Origin: a bacterium
GTDB taxonomy: Bacteria; Joyebacterota; Joyebacteria; Joyebacterales; Joyebacteraceae
DNA: 64,000 nucleotides
Assembly: GCA_029990205.1 (NCBI GenBank)
Contig: JAPEKQ010000004.1
Coordinates: 5,109 to 69,108, forward strand
Direction: 5' to 3'
Under the pieces are notes generated by a model. That model searched no databases, was not told the origin of the DNA, and was given only the letters and a program-made list of their open reading frames with translations. The translations under genes were made by a program, and so were the position numbers. Below, piece after piece: positions 20,131-45,904 of the stretch; position 1 is the stretch's first letter; every line of letters begins with the position of its first letter.

Positions 20131-20945
20131 ATGCGTATCGATACCGTGAGGGAGTAGCTGGAGCCGAGAACGGGGTGCCGACACCATGTCAGATCGAGAT
20201 CGGGCCGCATCGCCCGCCCGCCGCCGAGTCGGAGCCCGAATGCCGACGACGACGGCTCCAGCATGACCCCGGCCCGGAGACGCAGCCATGACGCGAGGGC
20301 AAGGTCGCACCCGACGGCCGGCGACGGGGCGAACCCGGGCTCTCCTGAGAGCGACGCCAGGACCGTCACGCCATCGAGAACGAGAGCCGCGTCGCTTGAG
20401 ACGCTTGAGGCGACAGGCGATGACAGGATACGTGAGCGCGTGGCGTTCCGAACGGACAGACCAACAACCAGTCTGCCGTGAACAAGCCAGGCCGCGGAAA
20501 GGTCGACCGTACCCGACCACTCCGGCGCGCCTCCCGCCCAGGACAGACAGAGCCCCCGACCACGGACACCGACCACGACGTCCCCTGACCAGCGGCGCAT
20601 TCCCGCGACCTCCACCGTCCCCTCGCGGTAGAGGCGCCCACCGAACGACGATGCTCCGACGGTGAGCCACCTGCCGGCCGACTCCCTGGAGAGAGACACT
20701 GCAGCGCTCCGAAGGTCGGCGAGCCCGTAGAGCTCGGACGATGATGCGCTGATGCGCCACGCGGCCTCTCGCTCCGGTCCGGTCAGCACATCGATCAACT
20801 CCGGAGTCGGACCGGCGCCGCAGACGGCATTGGAGGTAATCGAGAGGACGTCGTGCTCGAACGCAGCTCGCGCCCGGCCCGGGAATGCGCCGAACAGACA
20901 GAGCGACACGAGAACGCCGACGGGGACGAGTATCCGGCGCCTCAT
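20127..20945 (-). CDS. Probable outer-membrane beta-barrel protein (272 aa).
   Basis: Signal peptide MRRRILVPVGVLVSLCLFGAFPGRARA. Amphipathic beta-strand pattern. Overlaps both neighbours (translational coupling). Confidence 0.5.
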   Translation of the reverse strand: MRRRILVPVGVLVSLCLFGAFPGRARAAFEHDVLSITSNAVCGAGPTPELIDVLTGPEREAAWRISASSSELYGLADLRSAAVSLSRESAGRWLTVGASSFGGRLYREGTVEVAGMRRWSGDVVVGVRGRGLCLSWAGGAPEWSGTVDLSAAWLVHGRLVVGLSVRNATRSRILSSPVASSVSSDAALVLDGVTVLASLSGEPGFAPSPAVGCDLALASWLRLRAGVMLEPSSSAFGLRLGGGRAMRPDLDLTWCRHPVLGSSYSLTVSIRI

Positions 20946-27444: not shown

Positions 27445-27537
27445 ATGCCTCAATCCAAGAGAGCGCCGCACTTCATCGTGTCGACGCTCTCCAGTGTGTC
27501 ACTTCTGTTGTCACCTGCGCAAGACTGATGGGCAGTA

Positions 27538-29997: not shown

Positions 29998-30009
29998 TGT
30001 GCCTTCCCC

Positions 30010-30810
30010 CTAGTCGATCTCGAGCGCGTCGAGCGTCACGTACTTGCCCTGCTCCAGGTCGTACGCGCCGAGGATCTCCTCCTGCGAACGCGCCTTGCCG
30101 CCGAAGATGCCGAACATCTTCTTCGGAGCCGGGACGATGATGTCATAGATGTTGGGGTCGATGGCGAGATCGTCACCGCCGCCGCCGCGCCACTCCTCGC
30201 AGCGCGCCTTGACGTCTCGGAAGTCTCCGAGACCGCCTGCGCCGTAGTCGTCCTGGAGCCCCACGGCCGGCGTGAACCGCCAGTCCGAGGCAGCCCCGTC
30301 GATCTCATCGATGGGGATCGAGATCCGGATCGTGCCGGCCTCGACGTCGGTCACAACGGTCGCGCCCATGTCGACCTTCTCCGACGAAGCGTCCATCACC
30401 TCAACGGTCTCACCCGCAGCGAAGACCTGATACTCCGAAGGAGCCGAAAGCATCACGTTGGCGTTCCGCCTGAGCTCGCCGTCGCCGCCCTCCTGCGTGT
30501 CGATGGCCACGGCCACCATCGTCAGCCGGTTGCCGATGTCCCACGGGTCCACGAGGTTGCGGATCTTGAAGACGAACACCAGGTCGCCGTTGTCCCGCTC
30601 GATCGCGAACGAGAGCACGTCCGCCTCTCCGCCATCGCCGAAGGCCTCGTTCGTCGGATACGTGTAGTCGCCGTCGCCCGTGTCGTCGCCCTCGGGATCG
30701 GTCCACGAAGCCAGGAGCTCCGCGCTCGCCGAGCCGGCGACCGAAAGCACGAGCGCGCCGACCAGCAGCAACATCAACCATCTCATCGTCGTTCGCGTTG
30801 TTCGTTTCAT
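30010..30810 (-). CDS. Secreted protein with a glucodextranase DOMON-like domain (hypothetical alpha-glucan binding).
   Basis: Start at the ATG at 30810 (MKRTTRTTMRWLMLLLVGALVLSVAGSASA). Motif DPEGDDTGDGDYTYP resembles an internal domain of the 1776-aa cargo protein (DDEEGDDHGPNQ...YYHYP). The family assignment is from memory and tentative. Confidence 0.55.
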   Translation of the reverse strand: MKRTTRTTMRWLMLLLVGALVLSVAGSASAELLASWTDPEGDDTGDGDYTYPTNEAFGDGGEADVLSFAIERDNGDLVFVFKIRNLVDPWDIGNRLTMVAVAIDTQEGGDGELRRNANVMLSAPSEYQVFAAGETVEVMDASSEKVDMGATVVTDVEAGTIRISIPIDEIDGAASDWRFTPAVGLQDDYGAGGLGDFRDVKARCEEWRGGGGDDLAIDPNIYDIIVPAPKKMFGIFGGKARSQEEILGAYDLEQGKYVTLDALEID

Positions 30811-30921
30811 CGTTCTCCCCCCTGTATGGGTCCGGATTGCTCGCGCCGGCAACGGCGCGTCCGCGCGCCGGTGGAGGCGCGGTGGGACGTTCCGCACACG
30901 CGGTGCGGTCGGTCGGTGTCG

Positions 30922-32157
30922 TTACTCGCCGGCCAGAAGCTTGTCGACCTCACCGACCGCGGTGTTGATCGCGTCCTCGACCGACTTCGTCCCGTCGAGC
31001 GCCGCCTGCATCTCCGGGATGAACAGATTCTCGATCTCCGGATAGAACGGCGTCGGCGGCCTGGGAATGGCCGTCTGCATCTGCTCGACGAACGTCGAGA
31101 GATACGGGTGCTCCTCGGATGTGATGGCGTCCATCGCCTTGGTGTTCACGGGGATCTGGCCGAGCGTGAGCGCCCAGTTCCGCTGATTCTCCTCGTTCGC
31201 GACGAACATGAGGAACTCGGCGGCCAACTCGGGATGCTGCGACGTCTTGAAGACGACGAGGTCGTTGCCGCCGACGTTGGTATGGGAACCTGCGGGGCCG
31301 GCGGGAATGAGGCCGACGCCGAAGTCGATGCCCGTCCGCTTCAGACTCTCGACCGCCCACGGTCCGTTGAGGATCATGGCGTACCGGCCGTTCTGGAACC
31401 CGACGTCACCGGTGATACCGCCGGCGCGCCATGCGCCGCCCTCGATACCGTACTCCTCGAACATGTCGACCTTGAGCTGGAAGGCCGCGATGGCCTCCGG
31501 CGTATTGAGCGTGCAGTGCATCAGGTCGTCGGAGAGGAGATCCGCGCCGTACGTGTAGAAGAACGGGAGCGACCACCAGAGCGAGTTGGTCAGGCCGATG
31601 CCGAAGATGCCCTCGTCCTTGTCCGTGAGCCTCTGACCGTATGAGACCAGCTCGTCCCAGGTCGCGGGCGGCGTGTCGGGGTCGAGCCCCGCCTCGCGGA
31701 ACATCTCTCTGTTATAGAAGAGGCACAGGCCGTTGGTCTGGTCCGGGAGTCCGTAGAGCTGTCCGTCGTACATGCAGCTCTGAAGCGCCACCGGGAAGAT
31801 GTCGGCCAGATACTCGGCCGGGACGTACTCGTCGAGCGCCAGGAGCGCGTTCTTGCTCGCAAGCTTCGGAAGGAACGAGACGTCGACGCGCGCGATGTCC
31901 GGCTCGGTCCGCGTGGTGAGCGCCGTCTGGATCTTCGGCTCGGCGCCGGCGAACGGCAGACGCACGACCTCGACGGTCACGCCCGGGTGCGACTCCTCGA
32001 ACCGCGCCACCATCTCCTTGAAGACAGGGTGCTCTTCGTCATTGTAGGTCTGCCAGATCGTGAGCGTGCCGCTCGTGTCACCGCCCCCGCCACCACATCC
32101 CCAGAGCACCAGTCCGGCGAGCAGCAGCGTGCAGACGATCGCGGTCATTCTCTTCAC
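30922..32157 (-). CDS. Carbohydrate ABC transporter substrate-binding lipoprotein (MalE / maltodextrin-binding family).
   Basis: GTG start with GGGGGA Shine-Dalgarno-like sequence. Lipobox LVLWGC. Bacterial extracellular solute-binding family 1 sequence features. Confidence 0.8.
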   Translation of the reverse strand: MKRMTAIVCTLLLAGLVLWGCGGGGGDTSGTLTIWQTYNDEEHPVFKEMVARFEESHPGVTVEVVRLPFAGAEPKIQTALTTRTEPDIARVDVSFLPKLASKNALLALDEYVPAEYLADIFPVALQSCMYDGQLYGLPDQTNGLCLFYNREMFREAGLDPDTPPATWDELVSYGQRLTDKDEGIFGIGLTNSLWWSLPFFYTYGADLLSDDLMHCTLNTPEAIAAFQLKVDMFEEYGIEGGAWRAGGITGDVGFQNGRYAMILNGPWAVESLKRTGIDFGVGLIPAGPAGSHTNVGGNDLVVFKTSQHPELAAEFLMFVANEENQRNWALTLGQIPVNTKAMDAITSEEHPYLSTFVEQMQTAIPRPPTPFYPEIENLFIPEMQAALDGTKSVEDAINTAVGEVDKLLAGE

Positions 32158-32188
32158 GTGTTCCCCCTTGCGTCTGACTCCGGCTGCG

Positions 32189-33016
32189 CTATTCCTTCAC
32201 CGCACCCATCGTCATTCCCTCAATGAAGTAGCGCTGCGCGAAGAAGAACAGCACAGCAATGGGCAGGATCGAGATGCACGACCCCGCCATCTTGAGCGTA
32301 TAGAGCTCCTCGTGGGCGCTCTTGAACATCGCGAGTCCGACCGGCACGGTGTAGAGCCGTTCGACGTTCGTGACGATGAGCTGCCAGAGGAAGTTGTTCC
32401 AGTGGAACTGGAATGTCAGCAGAAAGAGCGTCGCGATGATGGGAATCGAGAGCGGGACCATGATGGTCGTGAAGACCTGTCGCTCGCTCGCGCCGTCCAT
32501 CTCCGCGGCCTCGATGAGTTCGCTTGGAATGGTCAGCATGTACTGCCGCATGAGGAAGAGCCCGAACACGTTCGCCAGGTGCGGGATGATCATCGCCTTG
32601 TAGGTGTTCATCCACCCGAGCTTCGTGATGATGGCGAACTGCGGGACGACGTACATCATCCCCGGGATCATGAGCGACAGAAGCAGGAGCCCGAACAACC
32701 GGTCCCGCATGAAGAACTGCTTCTTGGCAAAGACGTAGCCGGCCAGCGACGCGAAGAGCGTCGCGAACGCCGCCGCGGTCGTGGCGACGATGACGCTGTT
32801 GACGAAGTAGCGGCCGAAGCCGAAGTCGCCAAGCACGCGCTTGAAATTCGAGATCGTCGGACCCGTGGGGAACAGCTCGGTCGAGAACGCCTGCCCGGGC
32901 TCCTTGAACGCCGTCACGACCATCCAGAAGAACGGGAACAACACCACGATCGCCGCGGCCGTCAGCCCGACGTAGAGCGCGATGGTCTTCCAGACCGATG
33001 TTCTCTGTACTGCCAC
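32189..33016 (-). CDS. Carbohydrate ABC transporter permease (MalG-like).
   Basis: Six predicted TM segments and the EAA motif region (ELIEAAEMDGASERQVF). Start moved to the internal GTG (AGGAGA Shine-Dalgarno-like sequence) so that it does not overlap the upstream permease by 100 nt. Confidence 0.7.
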   Translation of the reverse strand: MAVQRTSVWKTIALYVGLTAAAIVVLFPFFWMVVTAFKEPGQAFSTELFPTGPTISNFKRVLGDFGFGRYFVNSVIVATTAAAFATLFASLAGYVFAKKQFFMRDRLFGLLLLSLMIPGMMYVVPQFAIITKLGWMNTYKAMIIPHLANVFGLFLMRQYMLTIPSELIEAAEMDGASERQVFTTIMVPLSIPIIATLFLLTFQFHWNNFLWQLIVTNVERLYTVPVGLAMFKSAHEELYTLKMAGSCISILPIAVLFFFAQRYFIEGMTMGAVKE

Positions 33017-33060
33017 GATCTCTCCTGCGGTCGCCGCGCGGCCCGAGGGCCGTGCGCGGT

Positions 33061-34032
33061 CTAGGTGTTGTCCGACCCGAGGAACTTCCTGTTCACCAGC
33101 GATACGATCACGGTCAGCGCCAGCAGCACATACGACATCGCCGAGGCATAGCCGAGGCGCCACTGGTTGTAGAACGCGTCAAAGACGTAGTACCCCGTCA
33201 CCCACGTCGCGCCGAGCGCCCGTCCGCCGACATCGACGTTCGGACCGCCGCTCGTCATCGCGTAGACCTCCACGAACGCATTCAGTGCGCTGATGGTCCC
33301 GATGATGACCATGAAGAACGTGATCGGCTTGACGAGCGGAAGCGTGATGCGGGTGAACCGCTGCCACGGCGTCGCCCCATCGATCTCGGCCGCCTCGTAG
33401 AGCGACGGTGAGATGTTCTGGATGGCCGAGAGATAGAGGATCATGCCGAAGCCGGCGCCCTTGAGGACGTTGGCGAACACGACCGACGGCATCGCCGATC
33501 CGGGCATCCCGAGGAACCCCTTCTCGGTGAACGCCGTGATCCCGATACTCTCGAAGAACTGCACGAGGATACCCACGTGCGGGCTGTAGATGAGCGTCCA
33601 GACGATGCCCACCACGAGCATGTCCAGCACGTACGGCAGGAAGAACGCGCTCCGGTAGACGGCCACCGCTTTGAGCCGGTTGTTCAGAAGGAGCGCAAGC
33701 GTGAGCGATGCTGCGATGCCCGCCGGGATGATCAGGACCGCGTAGTAGAGCGTCATCGCGACCGACCACCAGAACTTCACGTCCGTGAACAACTTGATGA
33801 AGTTCTTGAACCCGACGAACTGGAGCCCGCCGAACACGTCAAACGAGTCGGCGGGCACCTGATGCATTGCGAGGTACAGCGAGTAGACGACCGGGTACAC
33901 AAGGAAGACGAGGAAGATGATCAGGAACGGCGCAAGGAACGTATACGCAGTCAGGTTGTCCCTGGCGTGCTTCGTCAGCGACCAGGACCTTCCCGCCCGG
34001 GCTTCTCCGCCTCCTGTCCCCCGCTCGCTCAC
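33061..34032 (-). CDS. Carbohydrate ABC transporter permease (MalF-like).
   Basis: GTG start overlapping the upstream stop (GTGA). EAA motif (LYEAAEIDGATPWQRF). Multiple TM helices. Confidence 0.75.
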   Translation of the reverse strand: MSERGTGGGEARAGRSWSLTKHARDNLTAYTFLAPFLIIFLVFLVYPVVYSLYLAMHQVPADSFDVFGGLQFVGFKNFIKLFTDVKFWWSVAMTLYYAVLIIPAGIAASLTLALLLNNRLKAVAVYRSAFFLPYVLDMLVVGIVWTLIYSPHVGILVQFFESIGITAFTEKGFLGMPGSAMPSVVFANVLKGAGFGMILYLSAIQNISPSLYEAAEIDGATPWQRFTRITLPLVKPITFFMVIIGTISALNAFVEVYAMTSGGPNVDVGGRALGATWVTGYYVFDAFYNQWRLGYASAMSYVLLALTVIVSLVNRKFLGSDNT

Positions 34033-34820
34033 TCGACCGTCAGCACCGAGTTCTTGCCCCCGTAGGGGTCAGAGATGACGTCCGGGTTGGCCGGGTCTTC
34101 CATCCACGTCCCGTCCACCACGAACTTGTACTCGTACTGCCCGGGCTCGAGCATGAGCGTGATCACCCAGATCCCGTCGTCGTTCTTCGCCATCGCGTCC
34201 GCGTCGGGGCTCCATGCATTGAACGAGCCGGCGATGAAGACCGCGCCCGCGTCCGGCATGTCGAGCGACACATCGACCGGGAACGCCCCCTCCGGCGCCA
34301 GCGCTCCCCGGGGCTCCGGCGGCGGGTCGGCCTGCGCGGCCTCCTCGCGGCCGCCGGTGACCGTGCCCGTGACGATCTCGGCATCGTAACGGATGGTCGC
34401 CGGCACGATGACCATCGAGTTCTCGATGCCGCTCTCGTAGTCCGTGTCCGGGTTGTTCGGATCGATCTCCCACGTCACGCCGCCGTCGAGCACGAACTTG
34501 TACTGATAGCGCCCCGGGGGCAGCGGAATGACGATCGACCAGACGCCGTCGCCGTCCGCATCATGCATAGGGTCGATGGCCGGATCGTAGCGACCGCCGC
34601 CCTGCGTCCCACCCCAGTTGTTGAAGTTGCCCGCCAGTGTCACCTGGCGCGCCGAGGGCGCGTAGTAGTTGAAGATGAACCCGTCCGAGACCTCGTGAGG
34701 CGGAGGAAGCCGGTCCTCGATCACGCTCAGCACGCCCGCGCACGACGATATGACCATCGCCGCCGCGGCGAGCGCGAGAACGAGGGCGAGACGGGTACGT
34801 CGCGTTCTGTTCATACGCAT
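34029..34820 (-). CDS. Surface lipoprotein with two tandem CBM48 / E-set glucan-binding modules (a functional analogue of SusE/SusF).
   Basis: Signal/lipobox MRMNRTRRTRLALVLALAAAAMVISSC. Two copies of the ...AGNFNNW...YQYKFV(L/V)DG...W..DP.NP module. Confidence 0.7.
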   Translation of the reverse strand: MRMNRTRRTRLALVLALAAAAMVISSCAGVLSVIEDRLPPPHEVSDGFIFNYYAPSARQVTLAGNFNNWGGTQGGGRYDPAIDPMHDADGDGVWSIVIPLPPGRYQYKFVLDGGVTWEIDPNNPDTDYESGIENSMVIVPATIRYDAEIVTGTVTGGREEAAQADPPPEPRGALAPEGAFPVDVSLDMPDAGAVFIAGSFNAWSPDADAMAKNDDGIWVITLMLEPGQYEYKFVVDGTWMEDPANPDVISDPYGGKNSVLTVE

Positions 34821-34834
34821 CGTCCTCTCCCCTC

Positions 34835-36952
34835 CTAGAACGTGATGAGCGCCATGACGCCGAAGGTCTTCATCTCTGAGAGCGCTTCCTCGGCATCGAG
34901 GACACTCGTGCCGTCGTTGTCCCACATGTAGTTCGAGCGCCAGCGCTCACGGCCGTTGCCTCGGCCCTCGACCGGCGTGTCCATGTAGCTCAGCGGGTCG
35001 ACACCGTAGCCGACCCTGAACTGGATGTTCGGACGCGGGCTGTAGACGATCGCCACGTACGGCGCTATGAACGACTCGTCGTCGTAGGTCGTCCCGCGAC
35101 CGCTCGTGGTGTCGCTCACCGTCGTCGTCGGCACATCCTTGTACGTCATGTGCCGGACGTCGAAGAGAACGCTCCAGTCCTGGTTCAGGCTGTAACCGCC
35201 GCTGAAGATCGCTTCCATCGTATCGTAGGTCCCGTAGTCGTCATCGGGGTCGTACTCGATCGTGCGCGACTCGCCCGCGATCTGGACCCAGAGACGGTCC
35301 TCCATGATGTCCGCGCGCGCCCGGCCTCCGAACCGCGTGGCGGTCAGGTCGAGTTCGTCCTCACCGAACCAGATCGCCATCGAATCCGTGAACACGGCGT
35401 TGTAGCTCATGGTGGCGTACTCGACGCCGAGATCGAAGATACCCAGCTCGAACGCGCCATCGAACTCGATGGCCGTTCCGTCCAGCTCGGGGATCGGACC
35501 CGTCACGCTCGCTACGAGTTCGGAGCTTCCGCCGCCGACCTCGGTGTACGTGCGAAGGGTCCCGACCGGCCAGAGGTCACCCCAGCCTGACGTCCCCATA
35601 GCCATGAAGTGTGAGGAGCTGGCGGATGTGAACTCCTCCCCGTCCTCCATCCCGTCGATCTGGATCTTGGCGAACTCGAGGTCGAGATCGAGCGGCTCCA
35701 CCGGATCGGCCGAGAGCTCCACCAGGATGATGCTGCCCTCCATGTCGCCGACCGGCACGTCGATCGCGCCGTTGCCGTACTCGTCGCCCTCAACCTTCTC
35801 GTAGTTGCCCATGTTCCACAGGCTCTCGTAGTTGTAGAGGGCGTAGCCGGCCGTGATACCGTACTGCTCAGTGATCGGGTAGCTCGCGTCGAACGTGATG
35901 AACCGCTCGGTGTTCGAGAGCTCGAACCAGTCGCTCGACGTCCCGGACTCGGCGAGGTAGTCGTCGAGGTCCGGACTCGTGTTCGTACCCTGGAAGCCGA
36001 TCCACCAGTCGTCGCGCCACGAAGCAAACGTCCCGCCCAGCGCAACCGGGCCGACGGGCCGCGTCAGGCGCAGACCGATGAGATCGGTGCCCGTGTTGTC
36101 ATACTCGTCGGGATCATTGAGGACGTCGGCATCGTACGCGTTGGTGTAGACACCGGTCAGGTCGAAATCCCAGAAGTCGGTCGTGAGGATCAGACCCTGG
36201 GTGCCGCGGCCGAACGCGATGTGTTCCTCGGGAATGGTCCCGAGAAGGTCCCGGTGTCCCACGAGCTCGAACGGCTCGTCGAACTGGATCAGCTCCTCAT
36301 TGTAGAAGCCGGTCACCGAGAACAGGTCGCCCTCGAGCGCGACGCGGCCGTCATAGAGGTCGGCCGAGATCTCATTCATGTCGCCCTCGCCCGAGTAGAG
36401 GCGGAGGGTCGCCCGACCGGTCACCTGGTCGGTCACCGTCGGGACGACGGAGATAAAGACCTCATGATCCGGACGAACCAGACGCCACGACGGAGTCTCG
36501 TCGTCCTCGGACTGCGTGTTGTAGTTGGCACGGTACCAGCCCTCGAGACGGACACGCGAGTTGACCTGCGTGTTCGAGATGGCGGTCGTCGTGTCAGTCG
36601 CCGCGACTTCACCGCCGTCGTCGACAACGAGAAGCGAGTTGCCGTAGTCGCCGGCCGTCTTCGGGTTGTCCGGGTCGGCCACCCACTGCGAACCGTTCAC
36701 GACGAACTTGTACTCGTAGCTCCCCGCCCCCAGGTCCAGGACCACACGCCACGTGCCGTCGTCCCCGAGGGTCATCGGGTTCTCGTTCATGTTCCAGTTG
36801 TTGAAGATGCCGGCCAGGCTGACGCTCGCCGCGTACGGATCGTAGTAGCTGAACTCGATACCGCCGTCCACAGCCACGATCCCCGCGTGCGACGCCATGG
36901 CGAAGACAAGCACCGCCAGCAACACCACGCTCAGAAGATTCTTCGTTCTCAT
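34835..36952 (-). CDS. Outer-membrane beta-barrel protein with an N-terminal CBM48 glucan-binding module (candidate maltooligosaccharide porin or transporter).
   Basis: Signal peptide MRTKNLLSVVLLAVLVFAMASHA. CBM48 module VSLAGIFNNWNMNENPM...YEYKFVVNGSQWVADPDNP. Roughly 580 aa of alternating-hydrophobic beta-strand sequence ending in the aromatic C-terminus ...FGVMALITF. Confidence 0.6.
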   Translation of the reverse strand: MRTKNLLSVVLLAVLVFAMASHAGIVAVDGGIEFSYYDPYAASVSLAGIFNNWNMNENPMTLGDDGTWRVVLDLGAGSYEYKFVVNGSQWVADPDNPKTAGDYGNSLLVVDDGGEVAATDTTTAISNTQVNSRVRLEGWYRANYNTQSEDDETPSWRLVRPDHEVFISVVPTVTDQVTGRATLRLYSGEGDMNEISADLYDGRVALEGDLFSVTGFYNEELIQFDEPFELVGHRDLLGTIPEEHIAFGRGTQGLILTTDFWDFDLTGVYTNAYDADVLNDPDEYDNTGTDLIGLRLTRPVGPVALGGTFASWRDDWWIGFQGTNTSPDLDDYLAESGTSSDWFELSNTERFITFDASYPITEQYGITAGYALYNYESLWNMGNYEKVEGDEYGNGAIDVPVGDMEGSIILVELSADPVEPLDLDLEFAKIQIDGMEDGEEFTSASSSHFMAMGTSGWGDLWPVGTLRTYTEVGGGSSELVASVTGPIPELDGTAIEFDGAFELGIFDLGVEYATMSYNAVFTDSMAIWFGEDELDLTATRFGGRARADIMEDRLWVQIAGESRTIEYDPDDDYGTYDTMEAIFSGGYSLNQDWSVLFDVRHMTYKDVPTTTVSDTTSGRGTTYDDESFIAPYVAIVYSPRPNIQFRVGYGVDPLSYMDTPVEGRGNGRERWRSNYMWDNDGTSVLDAEEALSEMKTFGVMALITF

Positions 36953-37031
36953 ACGCTCTTCTCCGCTCGGGCGGGGCGGGCGCGTGCGCCGATGCCCCGC
37001 TGTCGGTCGCCCGTGGGGCGCCGACGGCTCG

Positions 37032-38495
37032 CTAGTAATAGATCCTTACGAATGCCTTGAACACCTGCTCTGTCGTCGTCGACGAGCCGTGGTCGACGAA
37101 GTCGCCGTCGTTCGTGAAGTCGTTGCTGTGGTCCGAATTGCCGTACTCCACGAAGAACTCGGCGCCCGACCAGGCAAGGTACCTGATCTGGGCGAACGCC
37201 GTCTGACGCGACTCGGTGAGCTCGTCGACGTTCATCACGCGCGCGTAGAACTTCCAGTTGTCGCTCAGGTTGACGTTCACTCCGAACCCGTAGGCTGTCA
37301 GTTCGTAGTCGGAGTCGATGTCCTTGATGCGGTACTGGAGCACGAGTTTGACGAGCCGGTTCTCACCGGTGACCTCGGTGAAGAGGTTCGGCCAGACGCC
37401 ATCGCGGTTCTCGTAGACCTTGTACTCAACCTTGCCGGTGAAGCCGTTGACAAACTCGAGGTATGCCTCGGTCCCCCACTCCTGCTTGACTCCCTCCTCG
37501 GCGTCGTCCCCCTCCTTCGGCGAATCCTTGTAGGTCCACCCCTTCAGGTTGATCGCCTTGGTCGGGATGCGGTAGTGCGCTTCGGCGTAGTACCTGCTGT
37601 ATCCGTTCTTGTTCTTCTGGTCTCCGCTCGCCATCTGCTCGGCGTAGAAGATCTCGCCGATGTCCTCATAGGAGACCAGGAACCGCAGCGGCCCGACCTT
37701 GAGGTCGCGAAGCTCGGTCTTGAAACCGTTGCGTCCTTCGTCACCCGGGTGCCGCGGATCACGCGATGTGTTCCGGCCGTACTCGGTCGCCCAGGTCATC
37801 CGGCCGAAACGACGGAGCGCCGGGACCAGCTCGCCGACCGCGACCTCGCCGTCGAACGCGATGACCTCATCGAAGTCCGAGTAGTCGCACCGGGCATACG
37901 TGCTTCCGAGCACGATCCGGTCGCTCGCGAAGTCGCGGGTCACGCGACCGCCTCGGTACTCGTTCTCGTAGCTCGTGTCGCTGTAGAACGCGGCGCCCTG
38001 GAACCCGTAGGTGTCCCAGAAGTCGAGTCGGATTCCCTGCGCGCGCGGACCGTACGAGTCATCCTTCACCCATCCCTGGTCGAGCACGCCGAGGAGCGGT
38101 TCGTTGAGCCAGAACCGGTCCTGCCTCGAGAAGAGGTACGCCTCAACACGGCTCCCCCGGAACCGGATGTGTCCCTCCTTGAGGTAGAGGAGGGAAGTCT
38201 TCTCGTACGTGTCCGTCTCCTCCGAATCCTGCCAGTTGTTGGACTCCGCGACGAGCTTCAGGAACGTGTCGATATCCGTCCACGGGCTGGTCTTCAGCCT
38301 GAGCTCGGCGTAGAGCCGCGGGTTGTCGAGTCCCCAGCTCGGGTCTCCACCTCCGCTGCTCCTGATCTCCGTCATCAGATCGGAGTACCCCTCCAGCGTC
38401 GTGATAGCCGCCGCCGGCGGAGCCAGAGCCAGGAGCAGGACGGTCGCAAGGAACACTGCGGTTCCGGCCGTCCCGAATCTCCTCTGTCGTGTCAA
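37032..38495 (-). CDS. Outer-membrane beta-barrel protein (488 aa).
   Basis: TTG start with AAGGAG 6 nt upstream gives MTRQRRFGTAGTAVFLATVLLLALAPPAAA. C-terminal ...KAFVRIYY. Confidence 0.55.
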   Translation of the reverse strand: MTRQRRFGTAGTAVFLATVLLLALAPPAAAITTLEGYSDLMTEIRSSGGGDPSWGLDNPRLYAELRLKTSPWTDIDTFLKLVAESNNWQDSEETDTYEKTSLLYLKEGHIRFRGSRVEAYLFSRQDRFWLNEPLLGVLDQGWVKDDSYGPRAQGIRLDFWDTYGFQGAAFYSDTSYENEYRGGRVTRDFASDRIVLGSTYARCDYSDFDEVIAFDGEVAVGELVPALRRFGRMTWATEYGRNTSRDPRHPGDEGRNGFKTELRDLKVGPLRFLVSYEDIGEIFYAEQMASGDQKNKNGYSRYYAEAHYRIPTKAINLKGWTYKDSPKEGDDAEEGVKQEWGTEAYLEFVNGFTGKVEYKVYENRDGVWPNLFTEVTGENRLVKLVLQYRIKDIDSDYELTAYGFGVNVNLSDNWKFYARVMNVDELTESRQTAFAQIRYLAWSGAEFFVEYGNSDHSNDFTNDGDFVDHGSSTTTEQVFKAFVRIYY

Positions 38496-38612
38496 GGGCT
38501 GCTCCTTGTCTCCGTCACACCCTCGTGACTTCCTGCGTGTCTTCAGTGTCGTGATACACGAATCGGTCCGCGGCACCTGCGCCGGCTGCGCGCCGGCCGC
38601 TGCCCGCGAACC

Positions 38613-39500
38613 CTACCAGACGAACATCGCCGAGAGCCGATAGAGACTCCCGATGCGCCGCTCGGAGAGCAGCGCCACGTCGACCAGGAGGTTCTTCGAC
38701 TTGATGCCGACTCCCGCCGTGATCCGGTCGCGGTTCATCCCCGCCCGGAGCGCGAACGCGTCGTAGAACCAGACCTCGGTGCCGATGTTGATGGATGACT
38801 TCTCGTCGTAGTACGCCGGCGCCTCGCGCGGAACGCGCCACTCCGCCGACATGAGCATCACACCGCGGAACAGATACGACCCGCCGATCCGCATCTCGGC
38901 GTAAACCGGGTCGATGTCGTCCGGCGCGGTCGTGTCGAGAAGCTGAAGCTCCGGCTCGCCGAGGTTCCGGAGGACGCCGCCGGCGCTCCAACTCCCTCGG
39001 CGGTAGAGCACTCCGAGATCGGCCGCGAACGCCGCGTCGCCGTCCCCGCTGAAGGCGGGGTCGTTGTAGTACTCGTATCCGGGCGCGTCGATCGAGAACC
39101 GCTTGAGCGCGACGCCCGCAGCGAGCCCCTCGACAAAACACCCGTTGAAACCGTATCCGGCGATGAGCGTGTCCTCGTTGTAGAGGTCCTCCGCCCCGGT
39201 CCGCATCCACCCGGCGGCCGCGCCGTGCGTCCCGTTCCCGTACCCGGCGATCGCCGCGTCCTCGGACACGCCGTCCACACCGTAGACGCTGGTGCGCATC
39301 CCGAACACCTGGATCTGCTCGAGCGTCGCGAGACCCGCGGGATTCCAGTGCAGCGCCGTGACATCATCCGCGACGGCGACGAACGCGCCCCCCATGCCCA
39401 TCGCCCGCGCGCCGAGTTCGGTCTCAACGAAGTTGGCCGAGACTGTCGCCGGTATGAGCGCGAGCGCCGCGCAGAGGACGAGCGTTGCTGTTCTCTTCAT
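38613..39500 (-). CDS. FadL-fold outer-membrane beta-barrel of the T9SS-associated PorV/PorQ/PorP(SprF) type.
   Basis: Signal peptide MKRTATLVLCAALALIPATVSA. N-terminal motif GARAMGMGGAFVAVADDVTALHWNPAGLA is characteristic of the FadL/PorV-like family. C-terminus ends in aromatic ...MFVW. Located 9 bp downstream of a T9SS cargo gene. Confidence 0.6.
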   Translation of the reverse strand: MKRTATLVLCAALALIPATVSANFVETELGARAMGMGGAFVAVADDVTALHWNPAGLATLEQIQVFGMRTSVYGVDGVSEDAAIAGYGNGTHGAAAGWMRTGAEDLYNEDTLIAGYGFNGCFVEGLAAGVALKRFSIDAPGYEYYNDPAFSGDGDAAFAADLGVLYRRGSWSAGGVLRNLGEPELQLLDTTAPDDIDPVYAEMRIGGSYLFRGVMLMSAEWRVPREAPAYYDEKSSINIGTEVWFYDAFALRAGMNRDRITAGVGIKSKNLLVDVALLSERRIGSLYRLSAMFVW

Positions 39501-39509
39501 GTGCGCTCC

Positions 39510-42500
39510 TTACTTGATGACGACCACGGGGCGGTTGATCCGCTCGTAGGTCGGCTGCTGTTCGAATTTGGCTTCGACTCTCATGACGTAGATTCCATAC
39601 GGGACGACCTCACCGTGCATGTCGGTCCCGTCCCACGTGATCTGGTTCGGCGTCCTGCCGAGATACTCGGTCGCCTGGTGCCAGACGAGACGCCTGACGA
39701 GCTTGCCGGCCAGATCGTAGAACTCGATGTTGACGTGGTCGGCCTCGCGCGACAGGTAGAACGTGACGGTCATCTCGTCGTAGAGACCGTCACCGTTCGG
39801 GGAGAACGGGTTCGGCTCGGTCAGCACACCGGAGAGACCCGCGTCATCGTCGAATCCGAGCGCGTCCCAGTAGAACACGCCGAGTTCGCCGAGATCCTGC
39901 GTCTCCGTCGAGACGGTGTTCCCGCTCGGCGAGTTGGCCGCGCCGCTGAGGATCCACCGTTCCGTCAGTGTGTTCCATTCGAAGAGACCGAACTTCGCCT
40001 CCTCGAGCGAGCCGACGTCGTACTGCGGGTAGTGGAGAGCGACGGAGATGGGCGACGCTGCCGAGACCGGCGAGCCGCCGGACTCCAGCGTGATCTCACG
40101 CGCCGTCCCGAGGTACTCCATGTCGTCCCGGATGTTGCTGTCGTCGATCTCGATCGACGGAAGCGCTCTGACGATAACGTCCACGTCCGCTCGCTGCGAC
40201 AGATCGCCGTCGGTGAGCGTCACGACGGTGCCGTCCTGGAACACCAGATCGTAGCCCTCGCCGAGCGAAGTCGTGTCGGCGACCGTGATCGCCTGTTCCT
40301 CCGCCCACGGCTCCGGGATCGCGATCTCGAACGGGCCGGCCGTGATGTCGTTCTCATACTGCGAGGCGTCCATGGCCCGGATGCTCGCTGTGATAGCGCG
40401 CGCCTGGCCGGTGACGTTGAGCGTGAGCTCGTTCGTCGCGCTGACGATCTCGCTGCGCGAGACGGCCGCGGCCCAGATGTCGCCCTTGAGGTTGACCATG
40501 TCGACCGAGTGCTGCGCCGTGTCGCCGTAGGCCTCCCACAGGAATGTCGCCTCTTCGACGCCCGAGCCGACGTCCTCGATAGTCGTCCAGAAGACGGCGG
40601 GCGCCTCATCGAGCGCGATCCACGGCACGTGCTGAATCGTGCCCTCGGGGACAAAGCTCGTGATGACCGGCGGCGAGTAGTCCTCGGCAAAGCTCGCCTC
40701 GAGGACGCAGGCGACCATGTTGTTGTCGAACCGCTCCTGTGCCTCGTCGGTCGTGTAGTCGAGCATCTCCTCCTGCGTGCGGCCCGGCTCGTGCCCGGCG
40801 CCGCAGCTCACGGCCACGTCGATGATGTTCGCGTCGCGGTCACGGCCGTCCTCGCTGTCGGCCCCGCCGCCGAACTGCCACTGCTGCGTGTTGGCGTTGA
40901 TCCACCGGATGCCGCCGAGATTCTCATCGCTCGAGTCGCCGTCGTGCGAGGACAGGCAGACGATGACGTCCCATTCCAGGATGGCGCTCTCCAGATCGGC
41001 GCCGACATCGAACAGGTCGCGATGAACGCGGACATCGATCGTGTCGTCCTCGTAGTTGTTGCAGAACGAGATGTCACTGTCGTTCTTGTAGAGACCCCAG
41101 TTCGCCGAGGAGTTCGAGTCGTTCGAGATGACGAACCACTTGCCCCATCCCTCGACGGAGATGCCGTAGTCCCAGGCGTCGACGGTCGCGATGTCGGTGT
41201 TCCGGCTCGGGAACCCGTTGGTCGAACCGGCGCCTTCCTTGGCATCGATGTAGATGTCGAGCTTCTGGAGGTTCATGTCCGTGCGGTACTCGCTGTCGCA
41301 CGTCGCTTCGCTCGGGTTCGGCGCGCCCCAGTCGGCGGCGCCGTCATCGAGATGGCTCACAAGATCAGCGACCGTCGTACGGAACACGACGTAGTCACCA
41401 TCGATGAAGATCTCCTCGCGGATGATGTCGAACGAACCCTCGAAGAAGACCGTGTCCGTCGGATAGTGATAGTAGAGACCCTCGATCGGCGTGCCGTCCG
41501 CCGTACCGTCGTCGGTCTGGTTCGGACCGTGGTCGTCCCCCTCTTCGTCATCGAAGTCGCGGATGGCCACGGCCGGGTTGTTCACCGTCACGGTGATCGA
41601 ACCCGATGCCGGCCACACGTTCGTGGCGTCTCGCGCCGTGATCGTGACGGTCTGGTCGCCGTCCGAGGCGCCCGAGGTCAGGATCTCGGAGGCCGAGTAG
41701 GTCCCGTCGCCGGCGGTCACATCCGCTCCGGCGCCATCGTCGAGCATCCGGATGAGCTCGGTCCCGCCGATGGTCGACAGATCGAGGAACACATCCCCGA
41801 TGCCGCCGCCCGTATCGGTCACTTCGATGGTGTACGTCACGAGGTCACCGGGCGCGGCCGGTGTCGGCACGGCAAGGCCGCCCGCGACCGTCGGCGCGTC
41901 ACCCTCCTCCCGGACGACGTAGGTCGTGTAATTGCCGAGCGTCACCGGCGTCGTTGCGGTCTCCCACCACTCGCCGGTCTCGGGCACCATGTCGTGCGTG
42001 GCGTCGTGCGGCACCGAATCGAGCGCCGCGCGCTTCTCGCCGTCCGTCTCCTGGGTCAGGTAGATCTCGAGCCGCACGGTGTCGCCGGGCGACGCCTCGA
42101 TCACCGAGAGCGGCACCTGGACCACGGCCGTGGTCTCGGTCTTGTAGGTCAGTCCCTGCGACACACCGTTGACGCCCTCGGCCCAACCGATGCGCCACTC
42201 CTCGTTGTCGAAGTCGTAGTGCTCCCACTCGCTCCCGGTGTGGCGGCGGAGGTCGGAGTAATCGTCGGCCGCGTACTTGTACGTGAAGCAGTAGTCCGGC
42301 ACGTTCGTGTGCCCGTAGTTGACCGGGAAGCCGAAGGGATCGCTCGCCCCGCCGTTGGCGTCCGCGTGCGTCTCGAACAGCGTCATCAGATGGACGCCGT
42401 CCCAGTTCGAGTTGAACGTGAGCGTAACGGTGAGGTCGTCCTCGTCGTTCGTCACACTGAGGATGGTCAGGTCGACGCCCTCGAGGCTGTTGTGGTCCGG

Positions 42501-44840
42501 ATCCGACTCGGGCGCCGTCTCGTCGATCTCGACGATCGTCGCGTCGACCGGTAGGTAGACGGTCTCGACCGACAGGCCGCTGGTCGTCCCGGTGATCTCG
42601 ATCGTCCCGTAGGACGTGCCCGCGGTGATCTCACCCGTCGCCATGCCCGTCGCATCCGTCACGATGGGTGTGTCGAGCGAGGCCACCAGGCTCGCCGGCG
42701 TCGCCGTCAGATCGATCGAGAGCCCCTGCTGCGCCACGGCGTTCCCGTAGTCATCCACAACAGCGGCCGTCAGCGTTGCGCTCTCTCCCGTCCTGAGAGC
42801 GACGGGCGATGCCGACAGCTCCACGAGCGCCGCCGCGTCGGGACTGATGGCTATGTCGAGCGTATCGACGTCGATGCTCGCGTACGCCGACGCCGCATCG
42901 ATGGTCGCGCTGACGTACGTCGTTCCCGCCGACGTCGAGCTGAACACCGTGATGAACCGGCCGTTCGGGTCGGTCGTCGGACTCGAAACGCTGAAGCTGC
43001 CGCCGGCACCCGTCGCCGTCATGCCGACATCGACATCCGCGATCTTCGCGTCGTTGCCGCTGCCGTCCTTCAGCTGACCGGTGACGATCGTCCCGGTGTC
43101 GCCGGCTGTGACCGCGAACTCCGTCGCGGTCAGCGCCAGGAGCGTGGGCCGCGCGGCGCCGATGCCGACCTCGAGCACGCCCGTGCTCCTGGTCGGCGTC
43201 CCCGCGTAGAGCCGGAGCACCTCGATCTCGTCGTCGGCGATGCGGACGCCCGCGCGGCCGTCGACAAACATATCCGAGGTCAGGGTCCAGCTCGGAATGG
43301 GGATCGAGTTGGTATCGGCGATGACGACCGTGCCGTCGGGAGGGTAGGTCGGGTCGAGCTTCGTCACCGAGAGCACGACGCCGTCCTGCGCGTCGTAGTC
43401 CCAGTAGGCGACGCGGTCCTCGTCGTCGCGCGGCTCGATCCACGCGTCGGCGTAGTAGTAGATCTCATCGTCGGGCAGACTCACCGTCGTGCCGACGCCG
43501 TAGACCGTGACCCCGGTGGAATCGACGTAGCAGTACTTCGTCGCCTCGACAGCAGCGAGCGTCATCAGTCCGACGTCCACGGTGTCGCCGTCCGCGATGG
43601 TTGCGGAGACCTGCGAAGGAACGTATCCCTTCGCGTCCGCCATCACGATCCAGTCCCCGTCGAGCACTGTCGCGATCGAGAACGCGCCGGCTCCGCCGCT
43701 GACGGTGAACGTTCCGTCCCCGCCCGGCTGCATGGTCGTAGCATCGTAGACCGTGACGTCCACGTCCTCCGCCGGGCCGCCCGTGAGAGCGACTTCGCCC
43801 TCGATGCGCCCGGTGACCTTCATCATAGAGAAGTCGACATCCTCGAGCTCCGGCTCACCGGAGAGCACGACGTCCTCGATGGTCTCTGAGAGATACGAGT
43901 CGGCCGTCGCGACCACATCGTAGGTGCCGTCCGGCACGAGGTAGACCGTGTAGTCGCCGCCGCCGGGACCGGTCTGCCCGCTCTTGACGGCCGTCGCGCC
44001 GTCGTACGCGGTGACCGTCACAACCGTGGTGTCGTCCAGAGGATCATCGAGTGTTACGGTACCGGAGATGGAGCCACCCGGCGGGAACCCCTCATCCGGG
44101 ACCCCATCACCGTTGGCGTCGACCGGAACCTCGTAATAGTTGTCGAGGTCGGTGATCGCGTCCCACGCGGTACCGCCGTTCGACTCAATGCCGGTCGACG
44201 ACGTGGGCATCGCGTCGTACGCGCCCGACCCGTCTCCGCCGACGACGGCGGCGATGAACCTCAGGGTCGTGCCGTTCGGAACGACACCCTCACCAAGCCC
44301 GAACATCCCGTCCCAGTTGAATCGCGCCTCGAAGTGCTTCCAACCGGGGTTGCCCTGCGAGTAGCCCCCGACGAAGTCGGTCGTGGCGGTCGGGTCAGTG
44401 CAGTGCTTGATCTCAAACACACCCGGCAGATTCCAGCCACCCATCACGACATCCGCACCTATCGTGCTGAACGTGATCTGCCTCTGGTAGAAATCGGCCC
44501 CGGTGAAGTCGGTGGCGCCTGTGATCCCGTTCTGCGCGTCGGTATCGATGAACAGGAGGTATCCGTTCCCGTAGCTGCTCGGGCCGTTCACGGTCGTCAC
44601 ACCGATATAGAGACTGTCGGCGTCCCAGGTGACGTAGAGGTCGACCAGATCCGCGTCGCTCGCGCCCCACCGGTTGTCGTTGTCCGGATCCACCACACCC
44701 AGTTCGTCCGGCGCCCAGTCGTTGGGCTCCTCCGTGACGTGCCCGTTGATGTGCGGGCTGTTGTAGGTCTTGGCGAACGCCCCGCTGCTCGCGAGGACGG
44801 CGGCGAGGACCAGAACCGCTATGAACAGGCTTCTTCGCAT
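39510..44840 (-). CDS. Giant multidomain cell-surface protein (1776 aa). Domains: carboxypeptidase-regulatory-like, Big/Ig-like repeats, glucodextranase DOMON-like domain, and a C-terminal T9SS sorting domain.
   Basis: Start moved to the ATG at 44840 (MRRSLFIAVLVLAAVLASSGAFA). C-terminal NPFSPNGDGLYDEMTVTFYL...ITWDGTDMHGEVVPYGIYVMRVEA. Internal SGTVTLDDP...YDVVATADSY (CarboxypepD_reg-like). Confidence 0.8.
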   Translation of the reverse strand: MRRSLFIAVLVLAAVLASSGAFAKTYNSPHINGHVTEEPNDWAPDELGVVDPDNDNRWGASDADLVDLYVTWDADSLYIGVTTVNGPSSYGNGYLLFIDTDAQNGITGATDFTGADFYQRQITFSTIGADVVMGGWNLPGVFEIKHCTDPTATTDFVGGYSQGNPGWKHFEARFNWDGMFGLGEGVVPNGTTLRFIAAVVGGDGSGAYDAMPTSSTGIESNGGTAWDAITDLDNYYEVPVDANGDGVPDEGFPPGGSISGTVTLDDPLDDTTVVTVTAYDGATAVKSGQTGPGGGDYTVYLVPDGTYDVVATADSYLSETIEDVVLSGEPELEDVDFSMMKVTGRIEGEVALTGGPAEDVDVTVYDATTMQPGGDGTFTVSGGAGAFSIATVLDGDWIVMADAKGYVPSQVSATIADGDTVDVGLMTLAAVEATKYCYVDSTGVTVYGVGTTVSLPDDEIYYYADAWIEPRDDEDRVAYWDYDAQDGVVLSVTKLDPTYPPDGTVVIADTNSIPIPSWTLTSDMFVDGRAGVRIADDEIEVLRLYAGTPTRSTGVLEVGIGAARPTLLALTATEFAVTAGDTGTIVTGQLKDGSGNDAKIADVDVGMTATGAGGSFSVSSPTTDPNGRFITVFSSTSAGTTYVSATIDAASAYASIDVDTLDIAISPDAAALVELSASPVALRTGESATLTAAVVDDYGNAVAQQGLSIDLTATPASLVASLDTPIVTDATGMATGEITAGTSYGTIEITGTTSGLSVETVYLPVDATIVEIDETAPESDPDHNSLEGVDLTILSVTNDEDDLTVTLTFNSNWDGVHLMTLFETHADANGGASDPFGFPVNYGHTNVPDYCFTYKYAADDYSDLRRHTGSEWEHYDFDNEEWRIGWAEGVNGVSQGLTYKTETTAVVQVPLSVIEASPGDTVRLEIYLTQETDGEKRAALDSVPHDATHDMVPETGEWWETATTPVTLGNYTTYVVREEGDAPTVAGGLAVPTPAAPGDLVTYTIEVTDTGGGIGDVFLDLSTIGGTELIRMLDDGAGADVTAGDGTYSASEILTSGASDGDQTVTITARDATNVWPASGSITVTVNNPAVAIRDFDDEEGDDHGPNQTDDGTADGTPIEGLYYHYPTDTVFFEGSFDIIREEIFIDGDYVVFRTTVADLVSHLDDGAADWGAPNPSEATCDSEYRTDMNLQKLDIYIDAKEGAGSTNGFPSRNTDIATVDAWDYGISVEGWGKWFVISNDSNSSANWGLYKNDSDISFCNNYEDDTIDVRVHRDLFDVGADLESAILEWDVIVCLSSHDGDSSDENLGGIRWINANTQQWQFGGGADSEDGRDRDANIIDVAVSCGAGHEPGRTQEEMLDYTTDEAQERFDNNMVACVLEASFAEDYSPPVITSFVPEGTIQHVPWIALDEAPAVFWTTIEDVGSGVEEATFLWEAYGDTAQHSVDMVNLKGDIWAAAVSRSEIVSATNELTLNVTGQARAITASIRAMDASQYENDITAGPFEIAIPEPWAEEQAITVADTTSLGEGYDLVFQDGTVVTLTDGDLSQRADVDVIVRALPSIEIDDSNIRDDMEYLGTAREITLESGGSPVSAASPISVALHYPQYDVGSLEEAKFGLFEWNTLTERWILSGAANSPSGNTVSTETQDLGELGVFYWDALGFDDDAGLSGVLTEPNPFSPNGDGLYDEMTVTFYLSREADHVNIEFYDLAGKLVRRLVWHQATEYLGRTPNQITWDGTDMHGEVVPYGIYVMRVEAKFEQQPTYERINRPVVVIK

Positions 44841-44982
44841 TCGAGACTCCTCAGACGGGCCGCCACGCACGGCGGCGATGCATCGAAACCGGAGGGGCGG
44901 AGCCACATGCGCCACCCCACTGGGGGATGTGGTGGCCCTCCTCCGGTCCTGCCGTTGCAGTGATTGTCATTTTGGTGGGAAA

Positions 44983-45011
44983 ATGCTATCAGACGCGGGC
45001 CGCGCGGTCAA
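44983..45011 (-). promoter_or_regulatory. Candidate sigma70-type promoter TTGACC-17-TAGCAT for the giant cargo gene.
   Basis: Minus strand reads cTTGACCgcgcggcccgcgtctgaTAGCATttt. It is followed by a leader of about 136 nt holding the hairpin GCCACC...GGTGGC (44908-44938). Confidence 0.4.
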
Positions 45012-45081
45012 GCCGGACGCACGGAACACGCCTGTATGTGGGCTCTTACGCGGTATCCAGGAGGTCTGGGAGGTCGCCCGA

Positions 45082-45864: not shown

Positions 45865-45904
45865 CGCCTCCTCCTTCCGGACGCGGTGCGTCCTTCGGTG
45901 GGAA

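Follow-up and report, generated by a model that had tools for sequence, protein, structure and literature searches.

In the present study, two adjacent minus-strand genes were analysed at positions 38613-44840 of a 64,000-nucleotide stretch of bacterial DNA (contig JAPEKQ010000004.1; the whole stretch is called the window below). They encode a giant secreted protein and a PorV-like outer-membrane barrel. On balance, the giant is best regarded as a cell-surface alpha-glucan capture protein that is held by its cognate PorV-like barrel and encoded in a conserved starch/glycogen operon. The giant-barrel pairing is considered real because it is supported by the synteny of the locus, the constraint on tail and barrel, a second pair in the window, unpaired tails that serve as controls and the adjacency of such genes in other phyla. 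The observation that had first drawn attention to this locus, made from the letters of the DNA alone (hereafter the sequence-only reading), was confirmed and its interpretation was largely right; membership of the giant-barrel system in a type IX secretion system (T9SS) is unproven.

The open reading frame (ORF) of the giant (39510-44840) encodes 1776 aa from MRRSLFIAVLVLAAVLASSGAFA, and the barrel gene begins 9 bp downstream. This arrangement, already noted in the sequence-only reading, was reproduced by the ORF calls and by the public annotations of the metagenome-assembled genomes (MAGs), which give identical products of 1776 aa and 295 aa. The DNA has a G+C content of about 65%, and identical copies of the locus are present on contigs of the MAGs GCA_029990255.1 and GCA_029990285.1. 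Close homologues are labelled Candidatus Eisenbacteria, with one labelled Candidatus Effluviviaceae; Candidatus Effluviviacota is a recently proposed phylum that is sister to Eisenbacteria and Latescibacterota (PMC11323493). The host, an uncultured bacterium of sediment, belongs to a lineage with Eisenbacteria and Effluviviacota as relatives. Orthologues of the giant (n=53) measure approximately 1760-2010 aa and share 31-82% identity with it, and more than 120 orthologues of the barrel share 64-85% identity.

All orthologous loci examined share the gene order of giant, barrel, a protein of about 500 aa, a CBM48 protein of about 700 aa, a double-CBM48 protein and an ABC importer. At 67-72% barrel identity, the loci also retained PPDK, Fer4_5 and Sir2 genes upstream and the small Glucodextran_C and GH57 genes downstream. 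The giant-barrel pair was present in all six species-level genome loci that had upstream sequence, and the three most distant giant orthologues (31-40% identity) still kept it, with overlapping stop and start codons in loci L093 and L094. The recurrence of the pair in all orthologous loci with upstream sequence is not due to chance. Moreover, the C-terminal tail is the best-conserved region of the giant (71% mean identity, versus 42-63% elsewhere), and in pairwise comparisons tail (39-79% identity) and barrel (39-73%) are both better conserved than the rest of the giant (33-60%).

Two further tail-bearing proteins are encoded in the window, namely a Lamin-tail-domain (LTD) protein (20945-22690) and a 1872-aa protein (537-6155). 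The LTD protein (LTD match E 6.7e-22; tail alone CHU_C 26.2 bits, FlgD_ig 24.8 bits) has a tail of the giant's NPF[ST]P[ND]GDGxxD subtype and is followed by a 272-aa barrel gene. Comparison of the second-barrel family (86 representatives) with the family of the first barrel by hhalign gave a probability of 99.2% and E 1.1e-19 over 263 columns, whereas direct BLASTP between the two barrels of the window detected nothing and single-sequence hhalign was insignificant. The two are taken to be homologous because the family-versus-family profile comparison alone showed it, and by this measure the second barrel is a distant paralogue of the PorV-like barrel. No curated model covers the second-barrel family, and PorP_SprF touches 2 of 40 members. 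The two examined tails that lack the GDG insert, those of the 1872-aa protein and of an S8 peptidase just past the window (locus L090), have no adjoining barrel.

Furthermore, when species-representative genomes were searched with the barrel profile, 80 loci were obtained, 77 of them with usable upstream sequence, and tails in the loci of other phyla were detected with a hidden Markov model built for this analysis. A tail-bearing ORF ended within 270 bp upstream of the barrel in 40 of the 77 loci and lay directly downstream in 4 more, all from Poribacteria; these 44 adjacent tails were among 60 tail matches in those loci. Barrel identity falls sharply from 65-81% among orthologues to 24-31% for the PorV-family barrels, whose MAG labels include Zixibacteria, Coatesbacteria, Calditrichia, Ignavibacteriota, KSB1, Latescibacterota, Poribacteria, Elusimicrobiota and others. 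The cargos beside these barrels fall into 19 unrelated clusters; among them are an S8 subtilase that has PKD domains, diverse proteins with Ig repeats and a cluster of bona fide PorU (NF033707, 429 and 434 bits, cut-off 420), which lies beside barrels that pass the PorV_fam model (148 and 99, cut-off 90). The sequence-only reading had proposed a cargo with a dedicated outer-membrane partner, and this arrangement is borne out by synteny down to 31% giant identity, the second pair and the adjacency in 44 of 77 loci.

The order PorU then PorV-family barrel was observed at L058:5535-10870 and L023:4119-10990 and also in L044, L047, L048 and L079, in loci labelled Coatesbacteria, Calditrichia or unnamed MAGs; NCBIfam matches to 'PorU2' and 'PorV2' were under cut-off. 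Tail-barrel neighbours also occur in MAGs labelled Elusimicrobiota (for example L025, L029, L042, L062, L075) and Poribacteria (for example L026, L037, L040, L069). Reviews confine T9SS and the proteins with its C-terminal domain (CTD) to the FCB superphylum (PMC12398890), and the assignment of tail-barrel cassettes outside FCB rests on MAG labels, which can be wrong. The present lineage groups with Latescibacterota; the occurrence of cassettes in MAGs labelled Elusimicrobiota or Poribacteria deserves checking.

The barrel starts with a signal peptide, which is followed by GARAMGMGGAFVAVADDVTALHWNPAGL. Its AlphaFold2 model has 14 strands (pTM 0.71), and the best Foldseek matches were the PorV structures 6h3i_F and 8gl6_F (E 1.4e-11, TM 0.69, 20% identity), whereas OmpG and FadL homologues reached E 2.5e-7 or worse (FadL 3.5e-7 or worse). 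Moreover, a profile of 28 barrel orthologues had F. johnsoniae PorV (6h3i_F) as its sole significant PDB match (E 2e-4), with profile positions 20-72 aligned to residues 29-81 and no other PDB match under E 0.09. In Pfam, all matches were sub-threshold: TraF_2 21.9 bits, PF11751 PorP_SprF 21.3 versus 22.3, Toluene_X PF03349 18 versus 29.7, UPF0164 17.1 versus 21.4 and PF19572 PorV 16.7 versus 27. Some orthologues carry a precomputed PF11751 match, and two are named PorP/SprF by PGAP. By these comparisons, the barrel is a divergent, PorV-like protein within the FadL-fold group, nearer PorV/PorQ than PorP/SprF. The FadL fold assigned by the sequence-only reading thus stands; of its broader PorV/PorQ/SprF label, the PorV/PorQ part is retained and the SprF/PorP part is not. 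PorP/SprF membership was rejected on the TIGR03519 and PF11751 cut-offs. A generic FadL/TodX transporter, which that reading had set as the contrary outcome, was rejected on the Toluene_X score and the Foldseek ranking, PorV being nearest by profile, NCBIfam model and structure. Eisenbacteria also possess a second PorV-family barrel (L020, L031, L038, L049 and L077, near position 10000), of which the L038 copy passes NF033709 with 123.8 bits. Its conserved neighbours are RNase R, PilZ, TPR, PEGA-domain and ComEC genes, with no adjoining tail gene and no T9SS genes.

The C-terminus of the giant had been called a T9SS tail, and this is supported in part. In the whole protein, FlgD_ig (PF13860) scored 31.2 bits and CHU_C (PF13585) 24.6; for the tail scanned alone, FlgD_ig rose to 38.9, CHU_C to 30.8 and PF18962 Por_Secre_tail reached 16.1 (cut-off 27 in each case). 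The tail carries the motif NPFSPNGDGLYD. Judged by these profiles, it is a FlgD_ig/CHU_C-type CTD that leans towards T9SS type B; with the two NCBIfam CTD models it did not reach the cut-offs. The NPFNP tail of the 1872-aa protein passes the type A model TIGR04183 (26.8 versus 23). The gene of this 1872-aa protein is followed on the same strand by the start of a paralogue (1 to ~380) with a near-identical N-terminus (MRKIAFAITLLL...NSVGSSVMEFEGTLTDAGGGVYTGTIDAV); a giant secreted protein has here been duplicated in tandem.

With respect to the likely ligand of the giant, its first 230 or so residues matched neither a PDB sequence nor, even at E<5, a Pfam family, and a PDB profile search with the domain did not match Sas6 at the sequence level. 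The sequence-only reading had reported that the N-terminus matched nothing, which holds for sequence and not for structure. A model built with 17 orthologues was a confident beta-sandwich (pLDDT 93.2), and Foldseek matched it at E 1.8e-5 to 7uwv_A, the structure of CBM74 with maltodecaose, so that the predicted structure agrees in fold with the solved CBM74. The invariant residues W42, W72 and W176 of the domain are candidate counterparts of W373, F326 and H289, which belong to the glucan groove of RbCBM74. The giant N-terminus is therefore described as a putative shortened CBM74-like module, and a 230-residue domain without a sequence family gains a predicted fold and a testable ligand.

The second glucan-associated module is Glucodextran_C (PF09985, cut-off 22), which the sequence-only reading had recognised in the giant as well as in the small protein at 30010-30810. 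The assignment was upheld in both proteins, with 97.3 bits (E 1.2e-27) and 128.6 bits (E 3.3e-37), and BLASTP aligned the two modules at 24% identity over 289 columns (E 1e-4). One orthologue is named by PGAP 'glucodextranase DOMON-like domain-containing protein'. The giant holds at least two modules of the CBM9/DOMON superfold. In a distant relative (L092, 23672-25322), GH57, CBM48 and a C-terminal Glucodextran_C are joined in one 1128-aa protein, and the module is considered functionally tied to alpha-glucan processing because of this fusion to GH57. The occurrence of Glucodextran_C as a separate small protein just upstream of GH57 in the window, and fused in L092, marks a fusion or fission event.

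The giant also has beta-sandwich and Ig-like segments. CarboxypepD_reg (PF13620) scored 29.4 bits, under its cut-off of 32.3, and the family is recorded for most orthologues. The first Ig-like segment scanned alone passed PF02369 (45.0 bits, cut-off 34.9) and PF09134 (40.2 bits, cut-off 33). Region D had no Pfam match; hhalign against the N-terminal alignment gave a weak relation (E 0.0085, probability 4.7%, 159 columns), on which region D is possibly a distantly related copy of the fold at the N-terminus, and no relation of region D to the small Glucodextran_C protein was detected. Region F had a mean identity of 42-49%. The family scans detected no catalytic domain in the giant. No identity could be assigned from sequence to the N-terminal domain, to regions D and F or to the ~490-aa protein encoded behind the barrel.

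The operon runs on the minus strand in the order giant, barrel, 487-aa protein, 705-aa CBM48 protein, double-CBM48 protein, two permeases and a binding protein, followed by the small Glucodextran_C protein, GH57, GDE_C (amylo-alpha-1,6-glucosidase), a 727-aa ORF, the LTD/tail protein and the second barrel. Orthologues of the third gene measure about 480-536 aa and end in RIYY (L006:10933-12495, L092:16204-17649, L093:7860-9470, L094:11598-13064), and none of 7 orthologues had a Pfam, NCBIfam or PDB sequence match. The third-gene protein may be a putative outer-membrane barrel or channel, perhaps of a new maltodextrin channel family. In GCA_029990255.1, the third gene appears as an opposite-strand 317-aa ORF and a 103-aa ORF in place of 487 aa (L001:10973-12568 versus L002:11006-12469), probably owing to a frameshift or assembly difference. 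The 705-aa CBM48 protein is a candidate unrecognised glucan-active enzyme. No SusC/SusD pair was matched by Pfam or NCBIfam among the window genes scanned, which include the operon. The promoter-like site at 44983-45011 was the sole sigma-70-like match in 27000-46000; promoter and terminator counts were not above chance expectation from shuffled sequence, and the site is a possible operon start on weak evidence. The features are listed below.

Features of the giant-barrel locus and of the neighbouring operon (positions in the window)
Feature	Position	Strand	Remarks
Promoter-like site TTGACC-17-TAGCAT	44983..45011	-	~143 bp 5' of giant ATG
Giant secreted protein	39510..44840	-	1776 aa; opening gene of alpha-glucan operon
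Signal peptide of giant	44772..44840	-	aa 1-23 (MRRSLFIAVLVLAAVLASSGAFA); read from translation, cleavage site inferred
CBM74-like / CBM9-DOMON-fold N-terminal module	44085..44771	-	aa 24-252; by predicted structure, not sequence
Two CarboxypepD_reg-like beta-sandwich spacers	43551..44072	-	aa ~257-430
Two Big_1 / Invasin_D3 Ig-like domains	42561..43133	-	aa ~570-760
Conserved module D	41895..42518	-	aa 775-982; no family
Ig-like segment of giant		-	aa ~985-1090; from scan of segment
Glucodextran_C (PF09985) module	40740..41558	-	aa 1095-1367; 97.3 bits, E 1.2e-27
Region F	39840..40739	-	aa 1368-1667; no family; least conserved part of giant
C-terminal sorting/anchoring domain	39513..39839	-	aa 1668-1776; NPFSPNGDGxYD subtype
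PorV-like 14-stranded outer-membrane barrel	38613..39500	-	295 aa; start 9 bp past giant stop
Orphan secreted protein	37032..38495	-	487 aa, ends FVRIYY; always third gene of module
CBM48 protein	34835..36952	-	705 aa; CBM48 at ~30-107, ~600 aa without family; conserved fourth gene
Two-module CBM48 / X25-like starch-binding protein	34029..34820	-	263 aa
ABC sugar importer	30922..34032	-	two BPD_transp_1 permeases and SBP_bac_1 binding protein
Small secreted single-Glucodextran_C protein	30010..30810	-	PF09985 E 3.3e-37
GH57 alpha-glucan hydrolase	27538..29997	-	with CBM48/CBM20-type modules
ORF between GDE_C and LTD cargo	22754..24937	-	727 aa; no Pfam/NCBIfam match
Second cargo, LTD protein	20945..22690	-	tail subtype NPFTPDGDGIDD
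Second barrel	20127..20945	-	272 aa; start overlaps LTD gene stop by 1 nt

A mechanism can be proposed from these features. The giant, with the signal peptide seen in its sequence, would be exported via Sec and would then cross the outer membrane by a T9SS-like route. Its conserved, probably uncleaved beta-sandwich tail would bind the surface loops of the barrel non-covalently, so that the giant is kept on the surface. This anchoring is proposed because of the analogy with PorU-PorV, PorZ-PorQ and the type B CTD/PorP-like pairs (PMC9143113), and the support for the contact itself is indirect, consisting of the adjacency of the genes and the conservation that tail and barrel share. Ig-like domains would form a stalk that carries the CBM74-like module (a predicted fold) and Glucodextran_C at its far end, where both may bind alpha-glucan chains or granules. 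Bound substrate would be handed to the CBM48 proteins and the GH57 and GDE_C enzymes of the operon, and the gene content suggests that the products pass through the orphan outer-membrane protein of about 490 aa and the MalEFG-like ABC importer.

Several results weigh against this interpretation. The barrel did not reach the cut-off of its best NCBIfam match, the PorV/PorQ model NF033709 (77.3 bits, E 1.6e-21, cut-off 90), and scored far lower against PorV NF033710 (32.6 bits, cut-off 250), PorQ NF033711 (24.9, cut-off 220) and PorP/SprF TIGR03519 (19.4, cut-off 90.55). For PorV, the sequence-only reading had named TIGR04056, which is a SusC/RagA model; the NCBIfam PorV model is NF033710. Confidence in the barrel model is moderate (pLDDT 71.5). 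The tail scored 22.5 bits against the type B model TIGR04131 (cut-off 35) and 15.0 against the type A model TIGR04183 (cut-off 23). The CBM74-like domain comprises 229 residues versus 357 in RbCBM74, at 15% identity, the likeness being one of predicted fold. In addition, about 700 residues of the giant are unassigned (regions D and F and aa 430-560), which leaves room for an enzymatic role. Searches of the scanned window ORFs and of the 10 kb beyond the window's right end found no SprA/Sov, PorU or GldKLMN, and a PorU profile search of a 5.8-billion-protein set returned none labelled Eisenbacteria among the best 120 matches.

The negatives for T9SS core genes cover the very small fraction of the genome that could be searched. 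Among the unassigned window ORFs, NCBIfam scans gave a GspD-type secretin only and no T9SS core gene, and tblastn with a PorU sequence against all collected loci matched non-Eisenbacteria loci only. The 10 kb to the right hold capsule-export and regulatory genes and an unpaired S8 peptidase with a tail. No paper linking Eisenbacteria or Effluviviacota with T9SS was found in the literature. Indirect pointers to a T9SS-type pathway are the tail that passes the type A model, the L038 barrel that passes NF033709 and the PorU-PorV pairs of neighbouring phyla. A further cluster at 9723-15320 (minus strand) includes a GspD/PilQ-type secretin (TIGR02517, 179 bits, under cut-off) that is preceded by ORFs of 399, 264 and 543 aa without a family match; it may represent a divergent assembly cluster for a pilus or for type II secretion. 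The ORFs at 11372-15320, upstream of the secretin, were considered as PorK/L/M/N and rejected, as they gave no matches; they are more likely related to a pilus or to type II secretion.

Three other explanations were weighed against capture of alpha-glucan by a barrel-held giant. It is unlikely, though the most plausible of the three, that the giant is a type-A-like cargo whose tail is cleaved by PorU, which would link the giant covalently to lipopolysaccharide while the barrel serves as a PorV-type shuttle. PorV, the nearest relative of the barrel, is the shuttle of type A cargos (PMC5562754), PorV-family barrels adjoin PorU in Coatesbacteria and other phyla, and at least one tail in the genome passes the type A model (26.8 versus 23). 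However, the giant's own tail scores lower as type A (15.0) than as type B (22.5) and is conserved better than any other part of the protein, a pattern not expected of a signal that is discarded. Moreover, PorU was not found for the lineage (none labelled Eisenbacteria among the best 120 profile matches), and the arrangement of one cargo with one barrel has been described for retained type B tails (PMC9143113).

The possibility that tail and barrel form a self-sufficient export and display module, in which the barrel acts alone or with the BAM complex and without SprA/GldKLMN, much as in two-partner or autotransporter secretion, is more doubtful. Under this explanation, an autonomous and widespread display cassette without the T9SS translocon or motor would have been recruited for Sus-like starch capture. 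The tight translational coupling of the two genes and the failure to find any T9SS core gene in the searched part are in keeping with it, as is the cassette in MAGs labelled Elusimicrobiota, Poribacteria and Bacillota, outside FCB (PMC12398890). Nevertheless, a 14-stranded barrel with an N-terminal plug, as in PorV and FadL structures, would be too narrow for a multidomain passenger of 1776 aa. The core genes are missing only from the very small searchable part of the genome, MAG taxonomic labels can be wrong, and the cargo of the cassette in several phyla is PorU itself, which points to a T9SS-type sorting pathway. Least probable is an ordinary FadL/TodX or porin-like uptake channel, for maltodextrins or a hydrophobic compound, whose adjacency to the giant reflects operon packing. 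An ABC importer and a further putative outer-membrane protein are indeed encoded in the operon of the barrel, which shows weak matches to Toluene_X (18 bits) and TraF_2 (21.9 bits) and to FadL and OmpG structures at E ~1e-7. By contrast, PorV is best in Foldseek by four orders of magnitude and is the sole significant PDB sequence match, while Toluene_X lies far under its cut-off (29.7). A paralogous barrel also follows a starch-unrelated tail protein in the same window, and the same adjacency is seen in 44 of 77 loci whose cargos are unrelated and which lack starch genes.

The retention of a tail-bearing cargo by its own FadL-fold barrel is experimentally established only for PorP-like partners in Bacteroidota. 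In the window, the same gene logic occurs twice within 25 kb with PorV-like barrels, in an uncultured phylum-level lineage, and, going by the record labels, it recurs in at least eight further phyla. If the proposed reading is true, gene adjacency could predict barrel-anchored surface proteins, and T9SS-type sorting would extend beyond its known range. The reading would also describe a form of starch acquisition without Sus, made up of CBM74-like, Glucodextran_C, CBM48 and GH57 components, which bears on carbon turnover in anoxic sediments.

Among known systems, the closest are the type B CTD/PorP-like pairs, such as SprB/SprF of F. johnsoniae and PG1035/PorP of P. gingivalis. Both PorV and PorP-like proteins belong to the FadL family of barrels, have 14 strands and bind CTDs of types A and B, and type B cargos retain their CTD and have cognate, co-expressed PorP-like partners (PMC9143113). 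As in those pairs, a large surface protein with an N-x-F-[ST]-P-N-G-D-G-type tail is encoded immediately upstream of a FadL-family barrel, with one barrel per cargo and several pairs per genome (PMC9143113). The tail is kept there for non-covalent anchoring (PMC9143113), which is proposed here by analogy. Unlike SprB/SprF, the barrel is nearer PorV/PorQ, the tail scores under the TIGR04131 cut-off, the host is not one of the Bacteroidota and the cargo is a putative glucan binder in place of a motility adhesin. Judged by its profile scores, the system is best filed as a variant and not as a member, because the PorP/SprF, PorV and PorQ cut-offs and those of both NCBIfam CTD models are unmet. What is new is the use of a PorV-like cognate barrel instead of a PorP-like one. 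The PorU-PorV and PorZ-PorQ systems also consist of CTD-retaining proteins held by a barrel of the PorV/PorQ family, and adjacency of this kind was seen in Coatesbacteria, Calditrichia and unnamed MAGs; the giant, however, is neither a C25 sortase nor PorZ, and its barrel (77.3 versus 90) is dedicated to a metabolic operon. FadL/TodX and the Treponema UPF0164 proteins share the 14-stranded fold and the N-terminal G-x-G-G-A...N-P-A-G-L segment, but the barrel scores under their cut-offs and its neighbours are tail-bearing proteins and not genes of lipid or aromatic catabolism.

With regard to the ligand-binding part, Sas6 of Ruminococcus bromii (CBM26 and CBM74) is a starch adherence protein of the Gram-positive amylosome that is anchored by a dockerin, and its RbCBM74 has 357 residues versus 229 here; a compact, predicted CBM74-like domain without a sequence family is a further new element. 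The Bacteroides Sus system (SusC/D/E/F/G) is likewise an operon that combines surface starch binders, outer-membrane passage, glucan hydrolases and an inner-membrane importer. In contrast to Sus, no SusC/SusD match was obtained in the scanned genes, anchoring is proposed to depend on tail and barrel versus lipid, import is by an ABC transporter, and the hydrolases are GH57 and GDE_C versus the GH13 enzyme SusG. A PorV-like barrel recruited to a starch operon of non-Sus type is thus also new in comparison with the systems described so far.

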